Shown here: positions 3,945 through 38,533 of the stretch, one piece after another
How the letters are laid out: each line of letters begins with the position of its first letter
Position numbering within the stretch: the first letter of the stretch is position 1
Assembly: GCA_031287815.1 (NCBI GenBank)
Contig: JAITSM010000069.1
Coordinates: 1 to 39,540, forward strand
Origin: Prevotellaceae bacterium
GTDB lineage: Bacteria; Bacteroidota; Bacteroidia; Bacteroidales; UBA932
Direction: 5' to 3'
Length of the DNA: 39,540 bases
Made by a program: the position numbers and the translations under genes
Notes under the pieces: generated by a model
Database searches by the model: none
Told to the model about the DNA's origin: nothing
Seen by the model: the letters and a program-made list of their open reading frames with translations, nothing else

Positions 3945-5165
3945 TTACAGTTGGCGGAAACAGCGAACGGCAGCGTTTTGTTGTGCTGCACGGCCGTGTT
4001 TGTATATTTGATCGCATGTATATGCAAGTCCGTCTTCGCGTAAATCGATTTGTAGACCATCTTCCCTGTTTTTGTCATTAGCGTACCATCCCTCAGCACT
4101 CGTAGTTAACTGGCCATTCGATACCGATCGTTCATTTGCGAATCCATAATAATCAAGTCGTGGTGAACAACTGGACGTCTTGGATCGTAGATATTGACAG
4201 ATTGTGGCATCCGATCCCATAGTTTTGGTCATGTTATCAAAATCATCAGTAACCGGCAATAACCATCCGGGTGGGCATATACCTTGTACATTGCCGGTAG
4301 AGCTACTTGACCCGCCGGCATAAGAAGCATATACTTGCGCCCATGGATAACTTCTTCCACATTCATCTTCCGTACAACCGCTCATAGCAGAACCTATAGT
4401 AGAACCATTATAGCTTGCTAATTTTACATTCTGCGCCAGCCACCACTTGCTATCTGACATCAATACAATCCTGTAATATTTGCTATCCCGGCTATCTTTT
4501 ATATAAGCTTCCCAATTCTTCGCGCCGCTGGTGCGTTGCTGGCAAAGGTGCGTAGCATCAATATATAAATCGCTTCCCTGATAAGGGCAGAAAATGCCCG
4601 GACAGTCTGTTTTATCTCTGATAGTAGTAGGCGTAATGGTCAATGCCGAAGTGGCAAGCGTTGTCCCGGTTACTGTTTGAGAGGTTGTGCCGTTTGCTGC
4701 TGCCAGGATAAACGGCGGCGTGCCACGCAAAGTATAAGTTCCGTTGTTCGCTGTTACATTCGGCGGGTAGTCGGAAACATAGGCGCACCAATTGAATTGT
4801 GCCGGCACATTGCTCAACGTTACGGTTACCGTAGCGTTGTATGTGCCGGAACTCCCTGACGTACCTTGCAGCCAAAAGCCTTTGTCGTTTCCTGTTTCCC
4901 GCGAAGGAGTGCCGACAGTAGCTATCGGCGTTCCGGAAACAGGCGCACGCATCCAACTGCCCAACGGCACATTGTCTACTATTGCCCGGTAATCTACAAA
5001 TACCCATACCTTGGAATTGTGTGTACCGGTACGCGAGCTATTCAACCATGATACATTAAATGTAACGGTGTTGCTTTTTGCACTAACCGGCGTAACTGTA
5101 ACGCCACTTTGCGCGCTTACGGCAACGCTTAAAAGCATTGCGAAAAAAAAGAAAAGTTTTTTCAT
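3945..5165 (-). CDS. Secreted paralog A: signal peptide, conserved N-domain and C-terminal Fib_succ_major (FISH)-type domain
   Basis: The signal peptide is MKKLFFFFAMLLSVAVSAQ. It shares motifs with 17389, 25678 and 37181 (V.TFxV.W...VWVxVD; FNWCAY.SDYPPN; YTLRGTPPF). The FISH hallmarks are WWLAQN, CPPGWLLP and the VRCFRQL end. Confidence 0.8.
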   Translation of the reverse strand: MKKLFFFFAMLLSVAVSAQSGVTVTPVSAKSNTVTFNVSWLNSSRTGTHNSKVWVFVDYRAIVDNVPLGSWMRAPVSGTPIATVGTPSRETGNDKGFWLQGTSGSSGTYNATVTVTLSNVPAQFNWCAYVSDYPPNVTANNGTYTLRGTPPFILAAANGTTSQTVTGTTLATSALTITPTTIRDKTDCPGIFCPYQGSDLYIDATHLCQQRTSGAKNWEAYIKDSRDSKYYRIVLMSDSKWWLAQNVKLASYNGSTIGSAMSGCTEDECGRSYPWAQVYASYAGGSSSSTGNVQGICPPGWLLPVTDDFDNMTKTMGSDATICQYLRSKTSSCSPRLDYYGFANERSVSNGQLTTSAEGWYANDKNREDGLQIDLREDGLAYTCDQIYKHGRAAQQNAAVRCFRQL

Positions 5166-8518: not shown

Positions 8519-11254
8519 ATGCGCCACTGTTTAAAAATACTGTCATCCGTTTTCCTTTCGTTAGGCTGTTTTTCCCTGCACGCGCAGGTGGAAGGGAAAG
8601 TCTTTGAATATGGAACGCCGGGCGCCCCCATAGAATTTGCCGTAGTAACGCTTTTGCCCGCCAACGTGCATACCCTGACCGATGCGCAGGGAGCCTTCTC
8701 CTTTCCCCAAACGGACGCCGGAAAGCTCACACTCCGCATACAGTTTATCGGCATGGAAACCATTGACACCACCGTTCGCGTAACGGCGGGGCAGCCCAAT
8801 TATTTTACCTTCGGGATGAAAAACGTTGACTTCCGGCTGGAAGAAGTAACGGTAGTAGCCACGCAAAGCAAGGCCGGGCAGTCTACCGCCTCCCACATTT
8901 CCCGCCAGGCCATCGACCACCTGCAAGCCTCCACGCTGGGCGACCTGATGCAGCTGCTGCCGGGCGTCGCCATTTCCAACCCCGATATGAACAGCGCCAA
9001 CACGATAAACATTCGCGGCACGGGCGCCAACAACAGCCTGGGGGCGGCCATTATTGTCGACGGCGTGCAGCTGTCCAACAACGCCAACCTCCAGGCCTTT
9101 GCCGCCACCATGAACGGCGACGCCGGCGACGCCGCCGCCGGCGTAGACACCCGCATGATTGCGCTCGACAACATTGAATCGGTCGAGGTCATTCGCGGCA
9201 TCCCTTCGGCGGAATACGGCGACCTCACCTCCGGCGCCGTGATTGTAAAATCACGCGCGGGGAAAGACCCGCTAAAGGTGAAATTCAAAGCCAACCCCGA
9301 CGTATACCAGGCCTCCGTATCCAAAGGATTTCTCCTCCACGACAAAGGGGGCGTCCTCAACCTCAGCGGCGATTACCTCTATACCGTCAAAAAACCGACG
9401 GAAGCCTACGCCTTCTACCAGCGGCTGGCCGTAAAAGCCCTCTGGACGGCTACCTTCCGAAACAACCTCTATGCCGCCACCTCGCTCGATATAACCTACG
9501 GCAAAGATACCCGCACCTCCAACCCCAACGACAACGCCATAGACTTCCGGGAAAAAGCGCAGGAAACCGGCATCGCCATTGGACACAACGCCCGCCTCAA
9601 CGTCAACAAAGGCTGGCTGAAATCGCTGGAATGGACGATAGCGGGAAAATATAACCACAAACATGCCTGGACGCACGAAATGCTTTACAACGCCACCGGG
9701 CTTTACTCCACCGCCATGGCCGACGGCAGCGTCGTTGCCAGCCGCCCCGGGCTGCAAGTATACGACAACGCCGGAAACGAAATCACCCGCCTCGCCGGAA
9801 ATGCATGGGCGACCATCCTCCCCAATGAATACTACACCGAATGGAGCGTATACGGAAAAGAAATCAACCTTAACGCCAAGCTCAAGGCGAATTTCAACAA
9901 ACAGTGGGGAAACAGCCATAACCGCCTCCTCGCCGGCGCGGACTTTAAAACCGACGGCAACGTGGGCAAAGGAAAAGTCTACGACGAACAAAACCCGCCC
10001 CTGCGCGCCTTTAACAACAAAGCCTACCGCAACCGCCCCTACCACGATATTCCCTTTATTTACCAGCTCGGCGTGTTTGTAGAAGACTACTACCGGCACG
10101 CCTTCGGCGAACGGTACCTCCACCTCGCCGCCGGCGCGCGCCTGGACTATATCAACCGAAAAACCGTCCTCGCCCCCCGCCTCAACGCCTCCTTCGACCT
10201 CTTCCCCGAAACCCTCGCCCTGCGAGCGGCCTACGGCGTCACCGCCAAAGCCCCGACCCTCCTCTACCTCTACCCCGAAAACGCCTACTTCGACTACCTC
10301 CTCACCCCGACCATCGGCCCCGAAGAAATATTATTATCCGAAACCCATATATTCCCCGCCCAAAACCCAAACCTCGAAATCGCCACCAACCGGAAAATCG
10401 AAATCGGAACAGACCTCCTCCTCCGGAAAAAATACCGCCTCTCCCTCACCGCCTACGACGAACTGCGCGAAAACGACTACTCCTTCGCCAATACCCTGAA
10501 TACTTTCCGCCTGGTGGAATACAGACAGTATTCCATCGACCACTGGGTAGCCGGCGCCCCGCCCATACTCCAATTGGATAATACCTACCACGTATTCGCC
10601 AGCTACTCCGAACCCGGCAACAACAGCTATTCCCACAACCGGGGCGTGGAGTTCGAACTGGACCTGGGGCGCTTCGACGCCCTCCGGACTTCCTTCTACC
10701 TCAACGGCGCGTGGGAAAGGCGCACCGCCAAAAACCTGGGCTACTCCTTCAGCACCCTCCCTAACGAGAATGCGCTGGAACAGCACATCGGCGTCTACGA
10801 AAAAGCCCGCCTCCGCTACGAAACCGAAACATGGCTCACCACCCTCCGGATTACCCACAACATCCCCCCCATCGGATTCGTCATCACCCTCACCTCCCAA
10901 ATCCGCTGGCGACACAACACCTGGACGGTATACGGAAACGATATGTTCGAAAAATACATCTCCTACCACGATGGAAAAATACAGGACTTCGACCCCGCCA
11001 AAAAAGACGACCCCGAATTCCAATACCTCTTTCCCGGCATCAACAACCAACGCGGCCTGGTAGAAAAAAGCATCCCCACCCTCTTCTTCCACCTCAACCT
11101 CTCCAAAGAACTGGGCGACTACTTCACCGCCTCCTTCTTTGCCAACAACGTATTCAACAGCCGCCCCGCCTATGAATCCACCGTCACGCCCGGCTCCTTC
11201 ATCGAATCCGGCGCCGACATCTTCTTCGGCTTCGACCTGAAAATCTCTTTTTGA
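8519..11254 (+). CDS. TonB-dependent outer-membrane receptor with N-terminal carboxypeptidase-regulatory-like domain
   Basis: It has a signal peptide, a CarbopepD_reg-like segment (VEGKVFEYGT..VVTLLP..TDAQGAFSF), a plug region (LGDLMQLLPGV, IESVEVIRGIPSAEYGD) and a long beta-barrel ending in ..GFDLKISF. Confidence 0.85.
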   Translation: MRHCLKILSSVFLSLGCFSLHAQVEGKVFEYGTPGAPIEFAVVTLLPANVHTLTDAQGAFSFPQTDAGKLTLRIQFIGMETIDTTVRVTAGQPNYFTFGMKNVDFRLEEVTVVATQSKAGQSTASHISRQAIDHLQASTLGDLMQLLPGVAISNPDMNSANTINIRGTGANNSLGAAIIVDGVQLSNNANLQAFAATMNGDAGDAAAGVDTRMIALDNIESVEVIRGIPSAEYGDLTSGAVIVKSRAGKDPLKVKFKANPDVYQASVSKGFLLHDKGGVLNLSGDYLYTVKKPTEAYAFYQRLAVKALWTATFRNNLYAATSLDITYGKDTRTSNPNDNAIDFREKAQETGIAIGHNARLNVNKGWLKSLEWTIAGKYNHKHAWTHEMLYNATGLYSTAMADGSVVASRPGLQVYDNAGNEITRLAGNAWATILPNEYYTEWSVYGKEINLNAKLKANFNKQWGNSHNRLLAGADFKTDGNVGKGKVYDEQNPPLRAFNNKAYRNRPYHDIPFIYQLGVFVEDYYRHAFGERYLHLAAGARLDYINRKTVLAPRLNASFDLFPETLALRAAYGVTAKAPTLLYLYPENAYFDYLLTPTIGPEEILLSETHIFPAQNPNLEIATNRKIEIGTDLLLRKKYRLSLTAYDELRENDYSFANTLNTFRLVEYRQYSIDHWVAGAPPILQLDNTYHVFASYSEPGNNSYSHNRGVEFELDLGRFDALRTSFYLNGAWERRTAKNLGYSFSTLPNENALEQHIGVYEKARLRYETETWLTTLRITHNIPPIGFVITLTSQIRWRHNTWTVYGNDMFEKYISYHDGKIQDFDPAKKDDPEFQYLFPGINNQRGLVEKSIPTLFFHLNLSKELGDYFTASFFANNVFNSRPAYESTVTPGSFIESGADIFFGFDLKISF

Positions 11255-11321
11255 TGTATGAATTATGATGTATGATGTATGATGGGCGCCAGCAACCTTA
11301 AACTTTAAACCTTTTTAGGGG
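11253..11321. repeat. 'Word' repeat junction: ATGTATGAT words, GGCGCCAGC core, AACCTTAAAC words (arms not self-complementary)
   Basis: Sequence: gatgtatgaattatgatgtatgatgtatgatg-GGCGCCAGC-aaccttaaactttaaacc. The complements of both arms lie at 13098-13118 and 13167-13187. Confidence 0.7.
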
Positions 11322-11346: not shown

Positions 11347-11436
11347 GACTAAAGCCTGAAGCGAGACGACTAAAGCCTGAAGCGAGACGATTAAAGCCTG
11401 AAGCGAGACGACTAAAGTCTGAAGCAAGACGATTAA
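11347..11436. repeat. 21-bp tandem repeat x4.3 (GACTAAAGCCTGAAGCGAGAC)
   Basis: Units lie at 11347-11367, 11368-11388, 11389-11409 and 11410-11430, followed by a partial unit. Confidence 0.9.
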
Positions 11437-11479
11437 AAATAAAATAAACTAAAAACCAAACATTTAAAACAAAAAAAAC

Positions 11480-12172: not shown

Positions 12173-12204
12173 CTAATGGAGAATGTTTTTTAATTATGAA
12201 TTAT

Positions 12205-12330
12205 TTCACCCACAGATTTTCTCAGATTATAACAGATTTCACAGATTTTCACCCACAGATTTTCTCAGATTATAACAGATTTCACAGATTAAATCTGTGA
12301 AATCTAAAAAAATCTGTGTCCATCTGTGGG
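12205..12330. repeat. 43-bp direct repeat x2 of CAGATT words followed by the inverted arm (AATCTGT words)
   Basis: Units at 12205-12247 and 12248-12290 are identical (ttcacccacagattttctcagattataacagatttcacagatt). Segment 12291-12330 is complementary (aaatctgtgaaatct...atctgtggg). Confidence 0.85.
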
Positions 12331-12340
12331 AGAACTTTAA

Positions 12341-12430
12341 ATATGAATTATGAATTATGAATTAGCTTGCGCCAGCAACCTCATACTTCATAACTCATAA
12401 TTCATACATCATAATTCATAATTATTTTGC
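12341..12430. repeat. 'Word' hairpin, ATGAATTAT/ATAATTCAT arms, GCGCCAGC core
   Basis: Sequence: atatgaattatgaattatgaatta-gcttGCGCCAGCaacc-tcatacttcataactcataattcatacatcataattcataatt. Confidence 0.8.
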
Positions 12431-12462: not shown

Positions 12463-12756
12463 ATGTCTTATTTAGAAGAAGTAAAAATGGGGTTAAGAGC
12501 GCTCAAGCCGGAGCTGTCCGTGAAATTTCACGTGCGCGCTATCGGTTTATTCGGCTCTATTGTCCGCAATGATTTTTCCCCATCCACCAGCGATATAGAT
12601 ATTATTGTCGATTTTTCGCAACCGGTAGGCGTAGAATTTATAGACCTTGCCGATTATCTGGAAAATAAATTCCACAGGAAGGTAGACCTCGTTTCAAGGA
12701 GAGGCATAAAACCCCTGTATTATTCCGCCATAGAGAAAGATATTGTTTATGTCTGA
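12463..12756 (+). CDS. mntA: MNT-type nucleotidyltransferase (type VII antitoxin MntA-like)
   Basis: It carries the GLFGSIVRNDFSPSTSDIDIIV minimal NTase motif and overlaps the downstream HEPN gene by 14 nt. Confidence 0.8.
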   Translation: MSYLEEVKMGLRALKPELSVKFHVRAIGLFGSIVRNDFSPSTSDIDIIVDFSQPVGVEFIDLADYLENKFHRKVDLVSRRGIKPLYYSAIEKDIVYV

Positions 12757-13081
12757 AAGAAATGCCGGAATATTATTGAACGACATCATCGAAAGCGGTG
12801 AAAAAATTCTTCACTACGTTCAAGGCTTAAGCTACGAACAATTCCTTGATGACGACAAAACTATTGACGCCGTCATCCGGAACTTTGAAATCATCGGGGA
12901 AGCGGCCAACCGCCTTCCCGACGGCTTTAAAGAAAGCCATCAGGAGATAGATTGGTATAGAATCAGGGGATTTCGCAACAGAATAGTACATCACTATTTC
13001 GGTATAGATTATAGCATCCTTTGGCAAATTAAAGAAACCTTTTTGCCGGAAATGTTATCGGCAATCAAGCAATTTATTTAA
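12743..13081 (+). CDS. hepT: HepT/DUF86 HEPN-domain toxin-like protein
   Basis: It carries the Rx4HxY motif (RNRIVHHY) and is about 110 aa, the usual DUF86 size. Confidence 0.8.
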   Translation: MFMSERNAGILLNDIIESGEKILHYVQGLSYEQFLDDDKTIDAVIRNFEIIGEAANRLPDGFKESHQEIDWYRIRGFRNRIVHHYFGIDYSILWQIKETFLPEMLSAIKQFI

Positions 13082-13251: not shown

Positions 13252-16527
<3,276 letters not shown>

Positions 16528-16643
16528 AAGTTAAGAACTAAAAGTTAAAAACTAAGAGTTGGCTGGCGCTAGCTAACTTTTAGTTTTTAACTTTTAACTT
16601 TAAAAAGGCGCCAGCCCACTCTCCATTTTCCATTCTCCATTGA
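16528..16643. repeat. 'Word' hairpin (AAGTTAAGAACT arms, GGCTGGCGCTAGC core) plus GGCGCCAGCC core and TCTCCATT arm
   Basis: Segment 16528-16601 is palindromic around ggctggcgctagc. At 16602-16642, the sequence aaaaaGGCGCCAGCCcactctccattttccattctccattg is complementary to 16853-16876, on the far side of the MITE-like copy. Confidence 0.75.
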
Positions 16644-16916: not shown

Positions 16917-17388
16917 TTGCAATTAAAAAATATTGTTTTATATTTGCACCGTTCTTTGACGTATTGAAAAGGATATAAAAAAAAATATCGCTTTAACTTT
17001 TATTCTGCGTATACTTCGAAATCAGGAAAATTTCAACTATGTCCGAATATAAGTCTGAGCAACCTCGCCAAGAGTGGATGGGGGTTGTAATACTTATCGA
17101 CATAGTGGGTTTCCTGAACCTCGAAGTATGATAAATATAACACCCCTTTCCACTTTTGGTTTTTTAGTGGAATTGAGAAAAAATCACCATAAAAGTTAAA
17201 GAAACAAATTGTAGAAAATGTGTGTTAAAATTTTCTGCAATGATTGGCAGCGGATAAAAATCGCAGCAGGGGGTTGTTTATAAAGTTGGTTTGTGTTTGC
17301 AAAACAGCCCCAAAGCTGCGAAAACAGAGCATAGACTTGTAGACAATAGAACATAGACAAAAATATTAACCATAAATAAAAAAATGCT
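16917..17388 (+). promoter_or_regulatory. Promoter plus ~440-nt structured leader (type I) of paralog B
   Basis: TTG (16917-16919) and TATATTTG (16939-16946) have a 19-nt gap. Helices are ATACTTCGA (17011-19)/TCGAAGTAT (17121-29), CAGGAAA (17023-29)/TTTCCTG (17110-16), CTATGTC/GACATAG and ATAAGT/ACTTAT. Loop CCAAGAGTGGA (17068-78) pairs with TCCACTTTTGG (17149-59), followed by T6. The proximal hairpin is at 17263-17319. Confidence 0.65.
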
Positions 17389-18306
17389 ATGAAAAAAAAT
17401 TTCTTTCTTTTCGCCATGCTTGCAAGCATGGCAGCAAACGCCACCGTAAAGGTAACGCCGCTTTCTACGGATTATTCCACCAACAAAGTAACCTTTAAAG
17501 TGGAATGGACTGGCACCCCCTCTGCGCCCCACAATAATCGTGTGTGGGTATGGATAGATTTTTGTCCGGTAGCAGGCACAACGCCGGCAACTTCTTTTTC
17601 TACCGCTACCATTTCCAACCCCGCTAAAACAGGCGGGAACGGCACGATTACCGGAGCCACCACGCGCGGATTTTTCATTGAATACAGCAGCGCCACCAAC
17701 GCCGGTACTACCGTTACCGCCACCCTGAGCAACGCCGCCGGCAAATTCAACTGGTGCGCCTACGGCAGCGATTTCCCGCCGAATGCGGTGGACAACTCCG
17801 GCGGCGGCTATGACTTGAGGGGCACGCCGCCGTTTATTATCAACGGCTCGATTGAATGGAGTTCCTACACTTATTCCGGCGGTACGATAAATACCCTCAC
17901 CGACGCTACCGGCTGTCCGGGCGTGTTGTGCGGCAAGGACGGCGAGTCGGCAGGATTATTGAACTGCTGCATTCCCGGAACAACGAATTGCAGCGGGACG
18001 TGTAAAACTACCGGGACATATACATCCAATGACGGCGCGTGCACCAATGCCTGCAATACTGCATATGTACAGGTGAGAAACCAATGCGGAAATGTAATAA
18101 ATGCGACAAGCAGTACATATTATAATAGTGGTTGCCGTATAGGATGTGCTGCGAGCTGGAGCCAAAGCTGCCGGGACTGGAACCAAGACTGTAGCTGGAT
18201 CATCGAAGAGCTTGACAAATGCCAATACTGCTGTACCGCCCAAGGATATCGGTACTATAATCTTGTTTCACGCGAGGGCTCTTCCGATTGTTCTTGTTGT
18301 AACTAA
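17389..18306 (+). CDS. Secreted paralog B: signal peptide, conserved N-domain and Cys-rich C-terminal module (no FISH domain)
   Basis: It shows MKKNFFLFAMLASMAANA, then VTFKVEWTG..NNRVWVWIDFCPV, FNWCAYGSDFPPN and YDLRGTPPFI. The last ~130 aa contain about 24 Cys and end in ..SSDCSCCN. Confidence 0.8.
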   Translation: MKKNFFLFAMLASMAANATVKVTPLSTDYSTNKVTFKVEWTGTPSAPHNNRVWVWIDFCPVAGTTPATSFSTATISNPAKTGGNGTITGATTRGFFIEYSSATNAGTTVTATLSNAAGKFNWCAYGSDFPPNAVDNSGGGYDLRGTPPFIINGSIEWSSYTYSGGTINTLTDATGCPGVLCGKDGESAGLLNCCIPGTTNCSGTCKTTGTYTSNDGACTNACNTAYVQVRNQCGNVINATSSTYYNSGCRIGCAASWSQSCRDWNQDCSWIIEELDKCQYCCTAQGYRYYNLVSREGSSDCSCCN

Positions 18307-23100: not shown

Positions 23101-23983
23101 GAAAGCCGACATTGTCCCGGCGCTGCTTTACGGGCACGGGCAAGCCATGTCGAAAAATGATTCCCTGTATTTGAAAGACGGCGTGCTGGCGACGAAAATC
23201 CTGCCCCGCATGCCCTACCGCGAAGGGGAAACGTACCAGGAACGGTACAAACAGGCGGCGCGCCTCTTTAAAAGGGAACATGCAGCGTTGGCCGATGAAA
23301 TAGACCGCTCCGGAAATCCCTACTACCGCTACAAGCTGATGAAAAACTACCTCTACAAGGGGCCTGTCCTCGAATGGTACCTGCGGGTAAAGGCGGCGAT
23401 GGAAAAGAATTACCGGCTGTTCGAGCAATTAGTCCCGGCAAAGGCCGTCATCACCGATATAGGCTGCGGATACGGCTTTTTGTCCTACATGCTGGCTTTC
23501 CGGTCGGGCGAACGGCGCATTACAGGCATCGACTACGACGCCGAAAAGATTGCCACCGCGCAAAATAACTTCTCCAAAACCGACCGGCTGCAATTCATCG
23601 CAGCCGATGCGTCGGCCTTCGCCTTCGCCCCTTCCGACGTATTTATCCTGAACGACGTGTTGCATTACCTGCCGGAAGAAAAACAGCACGCCGTGTTGAT
23701 GCAATGCGTAAAGAATTTGAACGCCGGCGGGAAAATCATCATTCGCGACGGCGACAGGGAACAGCGCAGGAAACATGCGCTCACCCAATGGTCGGAGTTC
23801 TTTTCCACCCGCCTGCTGAAGTTCAACCGGGCGGACTATGCCCTGCATTTCATCTCCACCACCTCTCTGGAAGCGTTTGCGCAACGCCACCACTTATCGC
23901 TGTCGATTGTGGAAAACAGCAAGTACAGCTCTAACAGGATACACGTGCTTAGCCGGGAGCCGGGAGTGAAGAGTGAAGGGTGA
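20120..23983 (+). CDS. Tri-domain fusion: MMPL/RND-like exporter, PlsC-type lysophospholipid acyltransferase and SAM-dependent methyltransferase
   Basis: It has two multi-TM bundles (about aa 270-410 and 680-800). The acyltransferase motifs are HX4D (NHQSVID) and FPEGTRS. The methyltransferase motif I is ITDIGCGYGFLSYMLA. Its start overlaps the GT2 stop (ATGA at 20120-20123). Confidence 0.8.
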   Translation: MIRIFIACYYFFRTRRILFYALGGLLTATMICLAWQIGWREDINSLLPQTEDTRSIGTVFKHVRVKDKIAVLITSRDTAHPAAPETMIQGCEAFFSRLLQTPAGRSHIRKVQSTVDSRLAESLHQYVMEQLPAFLDDAGYARLDSLLQPPQLEQQLAQQYSRLLSPLGMVSSKFIAADPLNLSGNILKSLEALEPDSRYALYDGHIFSDDKRYLAAFISPVFGAGELSRNEALVEEIERTIAAVEQQYPALSAAYFGGIPVGIYNARQIKSDAAAAMAVTALLIGLVIIFAFRRKSAVWLILLPVLMGGLFALALMYVIQGAISTIAVGAGSVILGVALSYSIHVFCHSLHAPSAEQLIRELAYPMTIGSFTTIAAFAGLAFMHTEALRDFGLFSCFTLIGTTLCCLVFMPHLLTFHRPPPRRLMRRIEKWTAYPFEKNGVLILLIVLVFGVSCFFCGKVTFNADMERLNYLPAPLAQAEKVLKDVFQGDAPTVYLVAVGATPDEALRHYRQAAEKCQSLKEASLIKDYSSAHHLLLPAAEQQERIDRWNAFWTPGKRAWLQTNLPAMAEKYKFKAHSFDGFLQRLDKDYQPVDYMQPGFLDTFVLNEWIEDAGGLPVAIIQAQLPEENKERVYQAFESDRHLVILDKTYFAGKFSTLVNEDFNALLFIVSVIVFLSILASYGRIEIAVVTFLPMLVSWVIILGLMALFGIEFNVINIIISTFIFGIGDDFSIFVSDGLLLEYKTGQKIIASHKTAIFFSAFAVIAGMGAMIFSKHPALYSISVTSVIGMLAILLISYTVQPFLFKLFITGRTAKRKFPHTWYSLLITVTALTVFVAGSLFLTLASYILFLLPVRKKAKQAFFHYLLYGFGFLQLYVMPNEKKVRQNPSRETFEKPAMIIANHQSVIDIMQALTWHPKIIMVTKAWVSRSPLFGKIARFAGFVDITKGYEPAVAHIRQYMDDGYSVVIFPEGTRSPDGKLQRFHKGAFYLAEALKADIVPALLYGHGQAMSKNDSLYLKDGVLATKILPRMPYREGETYQERYKQAARLFKREHAALADEIDRSGNPYYRYKLMKNYLYKGPVLEWYLRVKAAMEKNYRLFEQLVPAKAVITDIGCGYGFLSYMLAFRSGERRITGIDYDAEKIATAQNNFSKTDRLQFIAADASAFAFAPSDVFILNDVLHYLPEEKQHAVLMQCVKNLNAGGKIIIRDGDREQRRKHALTQWSEFFSTRLLKFNRADYALHFISTTSLEAFAQRHHLSLSIVENSKYSSNRIHVLSREPGVKSEG

Positions 23984-24106
23984 AGAGTGAAGAGTGAAGG
24001 GTGAAAAGGGTGAAGAGTGAAGAGTGAAGGGTGAAGAGTGAAGAGTGAAGAGTCACCCTTCACCGAGATACTCATCACCCATCACCCTTCACTCTTCACC
24101 TTTCAC
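23965..24106. repeat. 'Word' hairpin of GTGAAGA/GTGAAGG words and their complement, spanning two convergent stop codons
   Basis: The left arm (23965-24052) is gtgaagagtgaagggtgaagag... The right arm (24052-24106) is tcacccttcac...cttcactcttcacctttcac. The stop of the 20120 gene (23981-83) and the radC stop (24103-05) both lie inside the arms. Confidence 0.8.
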
Positions 24107-24976: not shown

Positions 24977-25064
24977 CATTCGTCCGATTAAGCCGGCATT
25001 GTCTATGCCGTGCTTTTCATCCCACCATACGGGTTCAACAACCCTTTTTCTTATTCCGACAATC

Positions 25065-25484
25065 AATTTAGGGGACTACATAAATAATTTAGGGGACTAC
25101 ATAAATAATTTAGGGGACTACATAAATGATTTAGGGGACTACCTAAATGATTTAGGGGACTACCTAAATGATTTAGGGGACTACCTAAATGATTTAGGGG
25201 ACTACCTAAATGATTTAGGGGACTACCTAAATAATTTAGGGGACTACATAAATGATTTAGGGGACTACATAAATGATTTAGGGGACTACCTAAATGATTT
25301 AGGGGACTACCTAAATGATTTAGGGGACTACATAAATAAATTAGGGGACTACATAAATGATTTAGGGGACTACATAAATGATTTAGGGGACTACATAAAT
25401 GATTCAGGGGACTACCTAAATGATTCAGGGGACTACATAAATGAATTAGGGGGCTACATAAATGAATTAGGGGACTACATAAAA
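25065..25484. repeat. 21-bp tandem array, ~20 units (consensus RATTTAGGGGACTACMTAAAT)
   Basis: The 420-bp array has an exact 21-bp period. Variant units occur in runs (ACATAAAT versus ACCTAAAT; AATTT, GATTT, GATTC, GAATT). There are no unique spacers. Confidence 0.95.
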
Positions 25485-25677
25485 TAGAGGAAGGACAAGT
25501 TTTTTGTACGGGGATTAAAATATGCCGGACGGCTTAGAACGCCAAAGCGTAAATCCAAAACAAAAAAACCAATGGCGGCAAAAAATGTTTGGTTGCCGAA
25601 GAACGCTTCGCCCTTGACGCTTTACCCTTCACCCTTGACGCTTTACCATTGACGCTTTACCGCTTCACTTACCTTTT

Positions 25678-28358: not shown

Positions 28359-28443
28359 AATTATGAATTATAGATTATGAATTATGGGTTATGAATTATG
28401 GGTTATGAGTTGGCTGGCGCCGGAGTTTATACTTCATAATTCA
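28359..28443. repeat. 'Word' hairpin (ATGAATTAT/ATGGGTTAT words, GGCTGGCGCCGG core)
   Basis: It fills the gap between the stop of the 28441 gene and the hisS start. The right arm overlaps the stop codon at 28441-43. Confidence 0.7.
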
Positions 28444-29826
28444 CCGGAATATATGCAGGCTGCCTTTGTATTCCGAAGTGTTGTACTGCACGCCGTCCCA
28501 GCCTTCGCCGTTAATTACGTAGTAATAGACGCCGTCGGCTGCGTTGCTGCCGGCGCCCATCCACTTGCCGTCCCAGCCCTGCCATTCGTCCAGGCGGCCT
28601 TCGTAGCGATACGCCAGCGCGCCCGAGCGGCTGAAGATATACACCTGGATATGTTCTATCGACTCCGGCTCTTTGCCTGTAACGAAGCGGAACACGTCGT
28701 TATAGCCGTCGCCGTTTGGCGTGAAAGCGTTAGGAATAGCGTCGGTGCTGAATTTCGACGGGGAAATAATCAGGCCTGTTTCCGTGCTGTCGGCGCAACC
28801 GGAGGCTGTATTGTAAACGGTTAAGCGCACGACATAGCTGCCCGGCACATAGCCGTCCACCCAATCGTTTTTGTACGGCGAATGAGGGGTTACCGGCAGG
28901 GGCGGCACGGTAGTGGAGTCGCTCCACATGACTAATTGCCCGTAATTTTTATTGGCGTCGCCGAAGCCTTTCCAGTAGTATTTGTCTGCATTCTTGCTCT
29001 TCTCCGAAGAAAACTGTACGCGGTATAACGCTTCGCCTTTCATGGGGTTCTCGGAGGCCGTTTCCCACCGGCCGTCCGCCCATGCTTCGGCGGTGATTTT
29101 TGCATACGCGGCAATGGCCGGCACGGTGTAGGGCGTGGTATAGCTGGCGCTTTTGCCGAACGCGTCCGTAACGGTTACGCTGTAGTTTGATTCTTTCAGC
29201 GGCGGCGGCGCGGCGATAATCGTGTTATAACTGTTGCCCCGCTGCTTCCACGATTCGTCGGCGCCTTCCACCCCTTCGTGGATATTTTCGCCGGAAGTCC
29301 ACCGGATAGCTTGCCAGCCGCTAAAAGTAGAATCGCCGGTATGCGACGGCGAATGTAAAAATTCTTCAAAATTATAAATGGTATAGCCGGCGCGCATCTT
29401 TGGCGTGGTCGTCATTTCCAATCGCAAACCGTTGCACTCGTTGAAGGAGGTGATCGTGTCGATTTTGAAGTTATCAAAAAACACCCAGCACGAAAACGCC
29501 GTGTCGCGCAACGTATTTTTGACCTGCACCCGGTACCCCCCGTCCATTGTAATCTCCAGCGAAGAAGCGGTTACGCCCGGCTCGTCTTTCTGTATAGTGA
29601 AACTTGCATCCGCCGGATTAAGCATCCGCCATGTGAACGTAGAAGCCTGTCCGTCGATGTCCCGCGCGGTTAGCGTGGCGGCGGTTTTGTCAAAAAAAAC
29701 AAATACCTGTTCCGGCTGCCCGGTCAGCCATTGTGTAGGTTTCACCGCATCGGGGCTCACGGCCGACAACTGCGCCGCCGCCGCCAATGGAACAAATAAA
29801 AATATCAGGGAAAAGTACTTTTTCAT
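28441..29826 (-). CDS. Secreted protein with T9SS type-B (gliding-motility C-terminal, CHU_C-like) sorting domain
   Basis: The signal peptide is MKKYFSLIFLFVPLAAAAQ. The C-terminal IPNAFTPNGDGYNDVFRF...GVYYYVI...GSLHIFR is typical of the TIGR04131-type domain. Confidence 0.8.
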   Translation of the reverse strand: MKKYFSLIFLFVPLAAAAQLSAVSPDAVKPTQWLTGQPEQVFVFFDKTAATLTARDIDGQASTFTWRMLNPADASFTIQKDEPGVTASSLEITMDGGYRVQVKNTLRDTAFSCWVFFDNFKIDTITSFNECNGLRLEMTTTPKMRAGYTIYNFEEFLHSPSHTGDSTFSGWQAIRWTSGENIHEGVEGADESWKQRGNSYNTIIAAPPPLKESNYSVTVTDAFGKSASYTTPYTVPAIAAYAKITAEAWADGRWETASENPMKGEALYRVQFSSEKSKNADKYYWKGFGDANKNYGQLVMWSDSTTVPPLPVTPHSPYKNDWVDGYVPGSYVVRLTVYNTASGCADSTETGLIISPSKFSTDAIPNAFTPNGDGYNDVFRFVTGKEPESIEHIQVYIFSRSGALAYRYEGRLDEWQGWDGKWMGAGSNAADGVYYYVINGEGWDGVQYNTSEYKGSLHIFR

Positions 29827-30122
29827 TTTTTGTAAAATAATTTACCCACGCGCCCGATATGTTCCATCAAATCGGGGTTGGTTAGCTGGTGGTAGATAGA
29901 CAAGTCGACGGTATAGGGAAGCAGCAGGTCGTCCAATGCCTGCGTCACTTCTGCGGCGACGGTTCCGTCCAGCCGGCCGCCGCGCATCGCCAGGTCGATA
30001 TCGGAATTGGCGCGGTAATTGCCTTTGGCGCGCGAGCCGTACAATACGACCTCTTCCACTTCGGGAAACCGTGCAAATACGCCGTGAAGTTTTTCAATAT
30101 CATTGTCCCGCAGCCCGAACAT
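29823..30122 (-). CDS. MNT-type nucleotidyltransferase (antitoxin-like)
   Basis: It carries the VVLYGSRAKGNYRANSDIDLAM motif. Its stop overlaps the start of the 28441..29826 gene (ATGA). Confidence 0.8.
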   Translation of the reverse strand: MFGLRDNDIEKLHGVFARFPEVEEVVLYGSRAKGNYRANSDIDLAMRGGRLDGTVAAEVTQALDDLLLPYTVDLSIYHQLTNPDLMEHIGRVGKLFYKK

Positions 30123-30529
30123 TATAGAAGCCCCTCCATCTTTTTTTCAAACTGTGTAAACAGCCGGAAATAGGTATGGGTGATTTTCGCCACTATCTCC
30201 TGTGCGACGGCTTCATTGTAGGTGTGTACCGAATCGATACGGCTACTTATCATCTCCATCCAATGGCGCCCGTCGTCGATGATACCCCTTTGGAATGCCG
30301 TACGGATAGCGTCGCGGCTTCCCATAATCGTTACGTGGGCTTGCTCGTATAGCAGATAATCTTTCATCACATTCCACGCCAATTCGTAGGTGTACTCAAA
30401 GGCCTGTATCAGCCCCTGCTGCTCCAGTTCGTTGAGCGTTTCTTTCTCGAAAAACTTGCGTAACTGCTCCAATGCTTTTTGGTAATTTGCAAATCGCTGT
30501 TTCCACCGTATATCCTGCGTTCCGGTCAT
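30122..30529 (-). CDS. HI0074-family NTase substrate-binding protein (HEPN fold, toxin-like)
   Basis: It has a [15 protein letters not shown] start and an Rx4HxY motif (RIDSVHTY). Its start overlaps the tyrS stop (ATGA at 30526-30529). Confidence 0.75.
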
Positions 30530-36014: not shown

Positions 36015-36701
36015 ATGAAATTTGGCGTAGTAATTTTTCCCGGCTCCAATTGCGACCACGACATGATTTATACTTTCCGCGATAAATTGCGGCAGGAAGT
36101 GGTTGCGTTATGGCACAAAGAACATGACTTAAAAAAAGTGGACGGTATCCTGTTGCCTGGCGGCTTTTCGTATGGCGACTATTTGCGCTGCGGCGCGTTG
36201 GCGAAGTTTTCGCCCATTATGCGCGAAGTAATGGAATTTGCCGGCAAGGGCGGTTTTGTCATGGGCGTATGCAATGGATTTCAAATCCTGTGCGAAAGCG
36301 GATTATTGCCGGGCGCCTTGCTGCCCAACGTAAGCCAGAAATTTATCTGTAAAAATACCTGCTTGTTGCCCGACAGCAAAACGTCGTATGCTACGAAATT
36401 TTTGAACCCTACGCAGCCGCTGAAAATCCCTATTGCGCACGCCGAAGGGCGCTACTACGCCGGCGCGGAAGCATTGGCGGCATTGCAACAGAACGGCCAG
36501 GTGCTGTTCCGCTATTGCGACGAAAACGGCGTGATTTCGGAACAGGCCAACCCCAACGGCTCGGTGAATAACATTGCCGGCATTTGCAATAAGGCGAAGA
36601 ACGTATACGGCATGATGCCGCACCCCGAACGCGCCGCCGACCCGGAATTGGGCAACACCGACGGGCTGCTCATCTTTCAATCCATATTGAGGATGCTATA
36701 A
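36015..36701 (+). CDS. purQ: Phosphoribosylformylglycinamidine synthase subunit PurQ (glutaminase)
   Basis: It shows MKFGVVIFPGSNCDHDM, GVCNGFQIL (nucleophile Cys) and MMPHPER. Confidence 0.95.
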   Translation: MKFGVVIFPGSNCDHDMIYTFRDKLRQEVVALWHKEHDLKKVDGILLPGGFSYGDYLRCGALAKFSPIMREVMEFAGKGGFVMGVCNGFQILCESGLLPGALLPNVSQKFICKNTCLLPDSKTSYATKFLNPTQPLKIPIAHAEGRYYAGAEALAALQQNGQVLFRYCDENGVISEQANPNGSVNNIAGICNKAKNVYGMMPHPERAADPELGNTDGLLIFQSILRML

Positions 36702-36732
36702 CAAACTTCCCTGAAACTTTTTTTCAAAAAAC

Positions 36733-37180
36733 TTGCCATTAAAAAATATTGTTTTATATTTGCACCGGTTATTATGTGCTCTTTGACATTCTGAAATAGA
36801 TATAAAAAATATATATCGCTTTAACTTTTATTCTGCGGATACCAGAAATCTGGAAAATTTCAATCACGTACGAATAATAAGTAAAAGCAACCTCGCCAAG
36901 AGTGGATGTGGGTTGTTCTGCTTATTTACGTGATGGGTCTTCCAGAACCTCTGGTATCAATAAGCATAACGCCCATTCCACTCTTGGTTTTTTAGTGGAA
37001 TCAGGAAAAAATCACCATAAAAGTTGAAGAAACAAATTGCAGAAAACGTTTATTAAAAACTTCTGCAATGATTGGCAGCGGATAAAAATTCGCAGCAAGG
37101 GGTTGTTTTATAAAGTTGGTTTGTGTTTGCAAAACAACCCCAAGGCTGCAAAAATAATAACAATTTAAAAATTTACTTTT
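36733..37180 (+). promoter_or_regulatory. Promoter plus ~420-nt structured leader (type I) of paralog D
   Basis: TTG (36733-35) and TATATTTG (36755-62) have a 19-nt gap. Helices are GATACCAGA (36838-46)/TCTGGTATC (36950-58), CTGGAA/TTCCAG, CACGTA/TACGTG and AATAAG/CTTATT. Loop CCAAGAGTGGA (36896-906) pairs with TCCACTCTTGG (36977-87), followed by T6 (36988-93). Further hairpins are at 37037-44/37061-68 and 37092-37149. Confidence 0.65.
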
Positions 37181-38323
37181 ATGAAAACAATTCTTTTCTT
37201 TTTTACAATGCTTATAAGCATTGCAGCAGGCGCACAGGTAACAAATGTTACACCAATTAGCGCAAATTATACGGACAAAACCGTGTCTTTTCGCGTGTGG
37301 TGGAACGCCGGCTCGCGCGATGTTACGCACCTCTCCAAAGTATGGGTGTGGGTAGATTATATCACGGTAAACAGTAACAACACCACTTCAGGAAATTTGT
37401 GGACACGCGCCACTGCGGGAACAGTTTCCGGCGGCGTAATTTCTTACGACGGCAGCAACCGGCAAGGGTTTTGGTTGCAAGGCAACAGCGGCAGCTATAG
37501 CGCTACCGTTAGCGTTAAACTAAACATTACCGCAAGCAAATTCAATTGGTGTGCCTACGTGTCCGACTATCCGCCGAATATAACACTAAATAACGGAACT
37601 TATACTTTCAGCGGCACGCCGCCATTTATATTGACTGCCACTAGTGGAGCCACTCAAACGGTAACCGGAACAACGCTTGCCACTTCTGCATTGACTATTA
37701 CGCCCACAACTATTATGGATAAAACAGCCTGTCCGAGCGTTTTCTGCCCTTATCAGGGCAGTGATTTATTTATTGATGCTACGCATCTTTGCCAACAGCG
37801 CGCCGGCGGCGCAAAAAATTGGGAAGCGTGGATAAAAGACACGCGAGATAAGGAATTGTATAGAATTGTTTTGATGCCTGACGAACTTTGGTGGACAGCT
37901 GAAGAAATGAGATACGATGCTTCAGCTACAAAACAAAGCTACAAATGTCCGACTGGCGCACAGCGGACAATTTATAATCGTCCTGTTGTCGCATGTCCAG
38001 CAGGATGGATACTTCCATCAGTAGCTCAATTTACCTATATACACAATATAGCTAGCGAAGAAGAACTACTGGCTGCTAATACATATGCTGTATACGGAAC
38101 AGGAATCGACTTCTATGGGTATGCTGTAATCCCAGATCCCAGTAGAGCTGATGGTGCGGACGAAACGATCCCAACAGGATGCATCTATGACATAACATGG
38201 TTCCCTAACGCTTGGGAGTCTATGGAGGGAAGACGAACTTTCTGTTGGGACCGAACTACTGCGCATCCCCCCGTATGCTACGAGAACCATCTCAGTTGGA
38301 ATCAAGTCCGCTGCATTCGCTAA
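37181..38323 (+). CDS. Secreted paralog D: signal peptide, conserved N-domain and divergent FISH-type C-terminal domain
   Basis: It starts MKTILFFFTMLISIAAGAQ. It is about 80% nt-identical to paralog A through ..YRIVLMPDELWW and then diverges. It has CPAGWILP and ends in VRCIR. Confidence 0.8.
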   Translation: MKTILFFFTMLISIAAGAQVTNVTPISANYTDKTVSFRVWWNAGSRDVTHLSKVWVWVDYITVNSNNTTSGNLWTRATAGTVSGGVISYDGSNRQGFWLQGNSGSYSATVSVKLNITASKFNWCAYVSDYPPNITLNNGTYTFSGTPPFILTATSGATQTVTGTTLATSALTITPTTIMDKTACPSVFCPYQGSDLFIDATHLCQQRAGGAKNWEAWIKDTRDKELYRIVLMPDELWWTAEEMRYDASATKQSYKCPTGAQRTIYNRPVVACPAGWILPSVAQFTYIHNIASEEELLAANTYAVYGTGIDFYGYAVIPDPSRADGADETIPTGCIYDITWFPNAWESMEGRRTFCWDRTTAHPPVCYENHLSWNQVRCIR

Positions 38324-38407
38324 GTATAATTTGAACCAAATAATAAAATAGAGGCGTGCTACTGCTGCAACTGAAACCTATACAAATGAATTAAAATATC
38401 AGACAAC

Positions 38408-38533
38408 CGAAATGTGTACGTACGCAATCGAAATGTGTACGTACGCAATTGAAATGGGGACGTACACATTCGCAATGGGGACGTACACATTTGAAATGGG
38501 GACGTACACAATGGCGATGGGAACGATAATAAA
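38408..38533. repeat. 21-bp tandem array x6 (CGAAATGTGTACGTACGCAAT x2, then TGAAATGGGGACGTACACATT-type units)
   Basis: Units start at 38408, 38429, 38450, 38471, 38492 and 38513. The core GGGGACGTACA resembles the GGGGACTACA core of the 25065-25484 array. Confidence 0.85.

Follow-up and report, generated by a model that had tools for sequence, protein, structure and literature searches.

Covarying alternative helices in the leaders of secreted TIGR02145-family genes of Prevotellaceae: a candidate transcription attenuator

The stretch of DNA considered here, referred to as the window, comprises the 39,540 nucleotides (nt) of contig JAITSM010000069.1 of a Prevotellaceae bacterium (assembly GCA_031287815.1), and the element under study is the leader found upstream of a family of genes for secreted proteins. 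A preliminary description had noted two copies of this leader and, in both, a pairing between the apical loop of a hairpin and a downstream tail beside a U tract, which it read as a conditional terminator. Four homologous leaders are present in the window and not two: copies A and B, which we call type I, on the plus strand, and two type II leaders on the minus strand, which share with type I their promoter, overall architecture and 3' module. The 24-nt pattern common to the window leaders has a chance expectation of 0 matches. Each leader is approximately 400 nt long, is preceded by a Bacteroidetes-type promoter and sits 5' of a gene for a secreted paralog of the TIGR02145 family. The four downstream proteins of the window are paralogous, with a common N-terminal region of about 190 amino acids (aa) and divergent C-termini of the Fib_succ_major/TIGR02145 type. 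A profile search returned more than 550 homologs of the downstream protein, many per Prevotellaceae metagenome-assembled genome (MAG), and the leader units are scattered among housekeeping genes (secA, purQ/purD, hisS and tyrS). Conservation is far stronger in promoter and leader than in the coding regions.

Eighteen distinct leaders from at least six assemblies were gathered, 4 of type I (copy A, copy B, L001 and the minus strand of L012, denoted L012rc) and 14 of type II. Most of those outside the window were taken from contigs encoding homologous proteins, while a pattern scan of a genome collection with the shared 3' module returned one locus, L001, a diverged type I leader from a Prevotellaceae MAG. 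A metagenome scan with the type I 20-mer TCGCTTTAACTTTTATTCTG gave four matches (L002-L005), all of which were discarded as chance occurrences in unrelated coding or other contexts. The quantitative tests concern 17 of the 18 leaders; L016, which was found later, was read by eye only. A search of the whole window against Rfam 15 at gathering thresholds returned tRNA matches only, and at E<=10 every match within 36650-37250 lay far below threshold, so that no known aptamer model fits there. Literature searches for the leader motif returned nothing specific. The leader is a new RNA family, absent from Rfam, of a known regulatory kind.

Every leader folds as a rod consisting of P1 (9 base pairs, bp), P2 (7 bp), P3 (at least 7 bp) and a variable upper stem. 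The P1-P3 sequences differ in every copy while their complementarity is retained, which is best seen in an alignment-free comparison of 5' halves with 3' halves: the mean pairing energy is -33.2 kcal/mol with the leader's own partner and -12.6 kcal/mol with those of other leaders, the own partner ranks first in all 17 cases, and the observed mean is reached by none of 20000 permutations. The joint MAFFT alignment of types I and II (A3) misregisters loop and tail and was replaced by N-padded anchor blocks (A5, A6). In the block alignment A5, which is registered by complementarity, 98.7% of the P1-P3 cells are paired, 22 of the 23 pairs have changed on both sides, and the covariation score is 1.16, compared with 0.24 in shuffles; slid registers give 31-45% paired cells. 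The helices are separated by two near-invariant internal loops, GA-AA-UC opposite GA-ACC-UC and AAUUUCAA opposite UGGGU. The junction strands (36846-36863 and 36934-36951 in copy A, and their equivalents elsewhere) are pairwise complementary (GAAAU/AUUUC, GGGU/ACCU), so that their conservation can be explained by dual pairing, which favours a design with two folds. In type I the upper stem is stable (-17.4 kcal/mol in copy A, -14 to -18 kcal/mol across the type). It may be added that a different local arrangement can be drawn, in which two small hairpins kiss through 7-nt loops formed by the two P2 strands.

The pairing from apical loop to tail is equally well preserved. In copy A, 70 nt separate CCAAGAGTGGA (36896-36906) from its perfect complement TCCACTCTTGG (36977-36987), and in copy B CCAAGAGTGGA (17068-78) pairs with TCCACTTTTGG (17149-59) through one G.U, followed by T6 (17160-65). 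The preliminary description proved accurate in these coordinates, sequences, complementarities and T runs when they were checked by sequence reading and an inverted-repeat search, and the pairing it had pointed out is kept in all 17 leaders analysed and, by eye, in L016. It was real, but incomplete: the helix also takes in the upper-stem 3' strand, so that in copy A it joins 36896-36926 to 36959-36987 by 27 pairs (-35.9 kcal/mol), and each leader has 23-28 pairs between the loop with the upper-stem 3' strand (segment 3) and the linker with the tail (segment 4). The best complement of the 13-nt tail in the upstream leader is the hairpin apex in 17/17 leaders (-8 to -17 kcal/mol). The extended helix has a mean energy of -25.3 kcal/mol with its own partner and -17.0 kcal/mol with those of other leaders, a difference reached by 0 of 20000 permutations, the own partner ranking 1-6 of 17; for segments 3 and 4 of type II the corresponding values are -18.3 and -11.0 kcal/mol. 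At the loop/tail core, cross-pairing between copies (-9.5 kcal/mol) nearly matches self-pairing (-12.2 kcal/mol).

The same helix, with 19 bp, is the consensus structure that RNAalifold gives when 13 type II leaders are aligned by MAFFT without guidance; in this alignment 91.9% of its cells are paired and 8 of its 19 pairs have changed on both sides. None of 500 shuffles reaches the paired fraction or the covariation score, and 6 of 500 reach the count of pairs changed on both sides; in slid registers 34-48% of the cells are paired. Across all 17 leaders the 9-bp core is 96% paired, with changes from C-G to A-U and from A-U to G-C between types I and II, and in L016 a single-nucleotide change on one strand is matched by a change on the other (AACGTGATTT with AAATCACGTT). 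G.U pairs make up 67 of the 441 pairs of the tail helix (15%) and the sense strand outfolds the antisense strand in 16/17 leaders, which indicates an RNA structure of the sense transcript. Among 3000 dinucleotide shuffles of 36733-37180 (448 nt), 5% hold a perfect inverted repeat of at least 11 nt and 0.17% hold one with a T-rich run behind it; the loop-tail pairing of a single copy is therefore only suggestive, and it is the comparison between copies that can be called decisive.

The tail helix ends at a U run whose position is conserved. A run of at least five T lies within 12 nt of the helix end in 13/17 leaders, compared with 3.2% of the other 12-nt windows of the same leaders. As in an intrinsic terminator, a stable helix is followed by a U-rich run (GTTTTTT in copy A), but the compact hairpin with a loop of 3-8 nt is missing, since the stretch looped out by the helix measures about 32 nt in copy A (36927-36958) and 35-45 nt in the other leaders. 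Ordinary sites with a GC hairpin and a T run occur at intergenic positions of the same genome, which makes intrinsic termination plausible at the leader U run as well. The features of the four leaders are listed in Table 1.

Table 1. Coordinates of the leaders in the window and of their parts, in 5' to 3' order for copy A.
Feature	Position	Strand	Remarks
Copy A, type I leader	36733-37180	+	promoter to ATG of the gene at 37181
Copy A promoter	-33 TTG 36733-36735; -7 box TATATTTG 36755-36762	+	direct sequence reading
Copy A predicted transcription start	~36768-36772	+	
Segment 1, GCTTTAACTTTTATTC	36818-36833	+	nearly invariant in type I; pairs with segment 2 (1:2) or segment 6 (P0)
P1a, GATACCAGA	36838-36846	+	followed by internal loop AA
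P2a, TCTGGAA	36849-36855	+	
Junction, AATTTCAA	36856-36863	+	
P3a, TCACGTA	36864-36870	+	
Segment 2, AATAAGTAAAAGCAACC	36876-36892	+	upper stem 5' strand (P4a/P5a) in the hairpin-region fold
Segment 3	36896-36926	+	apical-loop core CCAAGAGTGGA (36896-36906) and upper-stem 3' strand; 5' arm of the terminator-like helix
P3b, TACGTGA	36927-36933	+	followed by junction TGGGTC
P2b, TTCCAGA	36940-36946	+	followed by loop ACC
P1b, TCTGGTATC	36950-36958	+	
Segment 4	36959-36987	+	linker AATAAGCATAACGCCCAT and tail core TCCACTCTTGG (36977-36987); 3' arm of the terminator-like helix
U run, T6	36988-36993	+	directly behind the helix; predicted premature-termination site
Segment 5, AGTGGAAT	36994-37001	+	downstream partner of the tail
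Segment 6, ATAAAAGTTGAAG	37017-37029	+	partner of segment 1 (P0)
Type I-specific hairpin, ATTGCAGAA / TTCTGCAAT	37036-37044 / 37061-37069	+	
Common 3' module	37078-37149	+	small and long hairpin
3' module, small hairpin	37078-37093	+	GCGGAT-AAAA-ATTCGC
3' module, long hairpin	37092-37149	+	GCAGC-AA-GGGGTTGTTTT ... AAAACAACCCC-AAG-GCTGC; near-invariant loop GTTTGTGTTTG
Copy A gene	37181-38323	+	380-aa secreted protein, TIGR02145/Fib_succ_major paralogous family
Copy B, type I leader	16917-17388	+	gene 17389-18306
Copy B, hairpin	P1 17011-17019/17121-17129; P2 17022-17029/17110-17117; P3 17036-17043/17099-17106	+	
Copy B, other parts	loop 17068-17078; tail 17149-17159; T6 17160-17165; P0 16991-17003/17189-17201	+	
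Type II leader	26992->26638	-	-7 box from 26950; gene 26637->25678
Parts of the same leader	apical AACGTGGA 26865->26858; tail TTCACGTT 26802->26795	-	tail followed by TCATTTTTT
Type II leader	5593->5166	-	-7 box from 5551; gene 5165->3945
Parts of the same leader	apical AACGTGA 5430->5424; tail TTCACGTT 5368->5361	-	tail followed by TCATTTTT

The promoter block, which resembles the TAnnTTTG/TTTG consensus of Bacteroides promoters, is kept in 4/4 window leaders and in every related leader. In type I, the segments of the leader can pair according to two schemes, 1:2 with 3:4 (terminated) or 2:3 with 4:5 and 1:6 (read through). The 1:2 helix has an energy of -15 to -20.5 kcal/mol in 4/4 type I copies, and in the minimum free energy (MFE) structure of copy A segment 1 pairs with 36866-36888. 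The upper stem and the tail helix compete directly for the same nucleotides, an overlap that is strong in type I and weak in type II. A further constraint is geometric: through its closing pairs the tail helix connects the P3 top with the P1 base, which are approximately 27 bp away from each other when the rod is straight, by linkers of 0-5 nt. On steric grounds a straight P1-P3 rod and a full tail helix cannot coexist, which leads to the reading of the leader as a two-state transcription attenuator. The mean nested energies of the two folds are close together, at -45.2 and -42.7 kcal/mol. When successively longer prefixes of the leader are folded, the 1:2 pairing is the MFE structure once segment 2 has emerged in 12/17 leaders, and the lower hairpin is the MFE structure once P1b is out in 17/17. 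By the time the U run emerges, the terminator fold has become the MFE structure in three of the four type I copies, copy A included; the hairpin fold returns in two of these (copy B and L012rc, not copy A) after 60-110 further nt.

The CCACT..AGTGG hairpin, which the preliminary description had proposed as the anti-terminator, is present (ATTCCACT, 36975-82, with AGTGGAAT, 36994-37001) and straddles the T run. Its 3' arm, however, is transcribed after the U run, so the hairpin cannot form before the termination decision and is not the structure sought; the 5' strand of the terminator is sequestered by the long hairpin P1-P5. In type II, tail and U run pair with a downstream A-rich GAAACG(TGAA)-like segment, in most leaders with -11 to -15 kcal/mol, and the own partner beats those of other leaders (40 of 20000 permutations reach the observed mean). 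The local tail hairpin and this type II counterpart look like structures formed after read-through. The inverted repeat P0 (36819-31/37017-29) is 92% complementary in copy A and perfect in copy B, in whose full-length MFE structure it encloses the long hairpin and the tail hairpin. It is seen in 4/4 type I copies and in type I only, with sequences too invariant for covariation testing; across all leaders, its own partner (-13.4 kcal/mol) is no better than those of other leaders (-13.1 kcal/mol), and P0 is therefore treated as specific to type I rather than as a general feature.

These observations can be combined into a mechanism. The leader would be transcribed from its Bacteroidetes-type promoter into an RNA to which two alternative folds are open. 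In the read-through fold, 36838-36958 would form the long irregular hairpin (P1-P3 and upper stem) and sequester segment 3. In the termination fold, segment 3 would pair with 36959-36987 in a 19-27-bp helix ending at the U run, and the freed 5' half of the hairpin would pair with segment 1. The unpaired apical loop of 11 nt would act as a toehold from which the tail invades the hairpin. Once the polymerase has read through, the tail and the U run would be held away from segment 3 by AGTGGAAT in type I or by the A-rich GAAACG-like segment in type II, and in type I segment 1 would pair with 37017-29. Both structures are present and covary, the U run is conserved in position, and the two folds are nearly isoenergetic. 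We infer that transcription terminates at the U run, that a protein, a small molecule or an RNA reading the internal loops or segment 1 would regulate the choice of fold, and also the direction of the default state. The conditional terminator or attenuator of the preliminary description thus stands as the best reading, given a covarying helix that lies at an enriched U run and competes with a conserved structure. That the leader serves regulated premature termination of transcription, with the long hairpin as antiterminator and the apical loop as toehold, has in our judgement roughly even chances of being right.

Several results weigh against it. The U run is weak or interrupted in 4/17 leaders (L001, with T4, L006_14892, L007_15036 and L013_9671), and a simple terminator scan of 36500-37400 gives 0 sites, the scan being silent at the leader because the helix encloses a long loop. 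Nested-only energies keep the hairpin fold as the MFE structure at the U run in 13/17 leaders. The block-alignment figures for P1-P3 carry the bias of their registration by complementarity, of which the alignment-free test is free; the latter is for this reason the cleaner of the two. In type II the upper stem is weak and covaries poorly (-10.1 kcal/mol with its own partner, -7.9 kcal/mol with those of other leaders), so that the mutual exclusivity of the two folds rests there mainly on geometry, which sharp bends at the two internal loops could defeat. As for the selecting signal, the searches found no conserved leader open reading frame (ORF), no Rfam aptamer and no regulator gene adjacent in the window, and none of them gave a sensor for the choice of fold.

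The geometric argument is also where the most serious rival departs. The leader could be a single static and compact pseudoknot, with P1-P3 sharply bent at the two internal loops and the tail helix lying alongside, and without any RNA switch; it could then serve as a binding platform, as an element of mRNA stability or processing, or as a constitutive pause site or terminator overridden by a factor acting on the polymerase (processive antitermination). Both sets of helices covary and share no nucleotides except in the weak upper stem, and in type II segment 3 prefers segment 4 over the 5' strand of the upper stem, as the energies given above show. Near-invariant internal loops would be expected of tertiary or protein-binding motifs, and UpxY-type factors do act on Bacteroides leaders (PMC11685472). 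Yet a span of about 27 bp bridged by linkers of 0-5 nt demands two sharp kinks that are hypothetical, the complementarity of the junction strands is explained by two folds without recourse to tertiary motifs, and the full set of alternative partners in type I (1:2, 1:6 and 4:5) would be superfluous. The preliminary description had itself suggested processive antitermination of the UpxY or LoaP kind, for which we obtained no positive evidence: no NusG paralog or KOW/NGN protein was present among the window ORFs scanned, and the leader heads a single-gene unit, not an operon led by upxY; a NusG paralog may nevertheless be encoded elsewhere. We regard the static pseudoknot as rather unlikely, while still a serious candidate.

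In the remaining explanations the complementarity has another origin or another target. The terminated leader of about 220 nt could be a small RNA acting in trans, for example on the nascent leaders of other family members, with read-through as a secondary matter; the near-equivalence of cross-pairing and self-pairing at the core would suit such a role, as would the very large size of the family and the conservation of promoter and leader beyond that of the coding regions. However, the flanks of the helix covary with their own partner and not with other copies, and most sufficiently long leaders run into the conserved 3' module and then into a family gene oriented the same way (neither is found in L013_4503), which argues for a role in cis; we give this explanation a slim chance. 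The many leader copies scattered among housekeeping genes, together with an 11-nt inverted repeat of an A run and a T run (36736-46/36988-98) that brackets the promoter, could also point to an element acting at the DNA level, either a site of recombination or inversion or a recently spread repeat (such as a promoter cassette or an element similar to miniature inverted-repeat transposable elements), with the complementarity as a cruciform or inverted-repeat by-product. This we hold to be very improbable: the P1-P3 sequences are wholly different in each copy and yet complementary, which speaks for selection on pairing and not for recent copying, and the 15% of G.U pairs in the tail helix would turn into A-C mismatches if the pairing were one of DNA or of the opposite strand. 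The repeat flanking the promoter is of low complexity, is degraded in copy B and was not seen by eye in the type II leaders inspected. A Bacteroides-type inverton was likewise rejected, as flanking repeats of about 15-30 bp are expected of it and only the low-complexity, non-conserved 11-nt repeat is present. Finally, a ribosome-mediated attenuator, in which a short leader ORF couples translation to the choice of fold, could be imagined from the 29-codon ORF of copy A, which runs from an ATG in the apical loop (36906) to a TAG (36995) just past the U run, or from the short ATG-TTC-TTT ORFs that several type II leaders have close to their 5' end. The ORF of the loop has, however, 17 codons in copy B and 16 in L012, is reduced to ATG-TAG in L001 and is absent from type II; the 5' box reads ACG or AAG instead of ATG in about half of the leaders, and the mini-ORFs of the 3' hairpin loop vary in frame and length. 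Both leader-peptide models were rejected because their ORFs are not conserved, and we find an attenuator of this kind scarcely credible.

Beyond premature termination as such, one may ask whether the bistable RNA represents a new class of riboregulator for a very large family of secreted lectin-like proteins, with cross-talk between loci at the RNA level throughout the family. A ligand, a protein or an RNA would then read the internal loops or segment 1, and expression of the family members would be coordinated or mutually exclusive; as the loop and tail cores are common to all copies, terminated leaders could pair with the nascent leaders of other loci. We consider this extension speculative and its chances small.

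The part of the leader that follows the switch region contains the two downstream hairpins already noted in the preliminary description, ATTGCAGAA/TTCTGCAAT and GGGGTTGTTTT/AAAACAACCCC, both of which were recovered by the inverted-repeat search. The former is found in 4/4 type I leaders, where its loop varies and G.U changes occur. The latter, whose arms lie at 37099-37114 and 37126-37141, belongs to the 3' module, which is found in most leaders reaching that far and is missing from L013_4503; by eye, compensatory variants of the module are GTAGC/GCTAC in L009, L010 and L012 and GGGATTGTT/AACAATCCC in L013. The loop of this hairpin (37113-37130), (AAAAA)GTTTGTGTTTG, is almost invariant in most leaders bearing the module and shows two similarities to the Bacteroidetes -7 box. 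Just 5' of the GTTTGTGTTTG loop, the type II leaders have an ATG that opens non-conserved mini-ORFs (MKKVCV followed by a stop, and others), while the type I leaders of the window have ATA at this place. The upper-stem 3' strand GGGTTGTTCTGC (36910-36921) is 92% complementary to the 3' arm of the GGGG hairpin, GCAAAACAACCC (37129-37140), which could give type I yet another alternative pairing over a long distance. Several leaders have variable insertions in the interval that separates the 3' hairpin module from the start codon (17325-17365; 5235->5195 on the minus strand; also in L006, L010 and L012); they consist of heptamer-like repeats, such as ACAGAACATAGACTTGTAGACAATAGAAC and CTCAGCG-type repeats that build long hairpins; copy A is without them. 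The leader at L013 4503-4700 has the promoter, the long hairpin, the tail helix and the U run, and neither 3' module nor downstream family gene, and may be a decayed or re-used copy.

Other features of the window are mentioned for completeness. Tandem arrays with a 7-, 14- or 21-nt period are unusually frequent between the genes (25066-25483, 38403-38525, 11347-11437, 23964-24053, 11252-11284, 12381-12423 and 28359-28408), among them one with about 20 copies of a 21-nt unit at 95% identity and one with about 12.6 copies of GAGTGAA; an array also follows closely behind the copy A gene, and the largest contains a 162-aa ORF (24999-25487) that may be an artefact. A GC-rich palindrome, TTGGCTGGCGCCAGC, with inverted heptamer flanks of the AGTTAAG/AACTAAG type (205-287, 16524-16596, 12332-12399 and 28375-28423), recurs at gene ends in the manner of a family of long terminator hairpins, and is also present inside the L006 leader at about 7860. 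Pairs of nucleotidyltransferase and HEPN genes (MNT-HepT-like), similar to toxin-antitoxin systems, are located at 12463-13081 (plus strand) and 29823-30529 (minus strand), with a third pair in L013. A perfect 43-nt tandem duplication lies at 12204-12290, and a 118-nt unit occurs twice with 83% identity at 768-1006, running into the start of a LiaF-like ORF (917-1684). The C-terminal Fib_succ_major/TIGR02145 domain, found in a family that includes the protein encoded at 3945-5165 (minus strand), is reportedly mentioned in a paper on diversity-generating retroelements (PMC11661182).

If termination is confirmed, the leader would be a large regulatory RNA, supported by covariation, that controls possibly one of the largest families of surface proteins in uncultured Prevotellaceae. 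It would show that hundreds of paralogous secreted proteins are gated after initiation, a layer of regulation that has barely been explored in Bacteroidota beyond UpxY. With a rod of 120 nt as antiterminator and its apical loop as toehold, the leader would bring about attenuation in an unusual way and would exemplify toehold-mediated strand displacement in nature. The family comprises many diverged copies, a ready mutational series that makes it unusually testable.

Among known systems, the leader is closest in logic to attenuators of the trp type and to the expression platforms of riboswitches, where alternative helices overlap and one of them ends at a U run. As in the trp-type arrangement, the competitor for the 5' arm of the terminator lies upstream, and type I has the full set of 1:2, 2:3 and 3:4 pairings. 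It differs from them in having no conserved leader peptide and no recognisable aptamer, in an antiterminator that is a rod of about 120 nt with two invariant internal loops, in an unusually long terminator helix whose invasion would start from an apical-loop toehold, and in the further partners located 3' of the U run (4:5, and 1:6 in type I). T-box leaders, too, have an extended irregular stem whose internal loops are conserved and, behind it, terminator and antiterminator helices that compete, and the conserved element at the apex of the leader is UGGA-like. However, even at E<=10 RF00230 was not matched, a specifier loop could not be recognised in the leader, UGG is not conserved in type II (where GUGAA or GUGUA is possible), and the genes encode secreted lectin-like proteins of the TIGR02145 family, whereas T-boxes precede genes related to amino acids and aminoacyl-tRNA.

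With the UpxY (NusG-SP) ops leaders of Bacteroides capsule operons and with LoaP leaders, the leader has in common its position as a Bacteroidales 5' leader, a presumed control of elongation into multi-locus genes for surface structures and the probable importance of nascent hairpins (PMC11685472). UpxY recognises its target through the non-template DNA at a pause site. UpxY loci are long operons that start with their own upxY and upxZ genes (PMC11685472); in the present case the first gene is that of the secreted protein itself, in single-gene units with no NusG paralog nearby. The RNA targets of BglG/SacY (ribonucleic antiterminators, RAT), PyrR and ANTAR proteins are likewise cis elements overlapping a terminator, and the conserved loops of the leader could bind a protein in the same way, but those targets are about 30-60 nt long with a defined consensus, none of which was recognised in the leader, and no cognate regulator gene is adjacent to it. 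In countertranscript-driven attenuation and kissing-loop systems such as pT181 and RNA I/II of ColE1, pairing nucleates at an exposed hairpin loop, propagates and remodels the structure into a terminator, much as proposed here, with the difference that the invading strand is a separate antisense RNA in those systems and the leader's own downstream tail in ours. Lastly, contingency families of surface proteins, for instance Mycoplasma vsp/vlp, also combine a large set of secreted paralogs with a promoter and 5' region better conserved than the coding sequence; their conservation is at the level of sequence and serves recombination or phase variation, while the stems of the leader covary and it is the RNA structure that is under selection.

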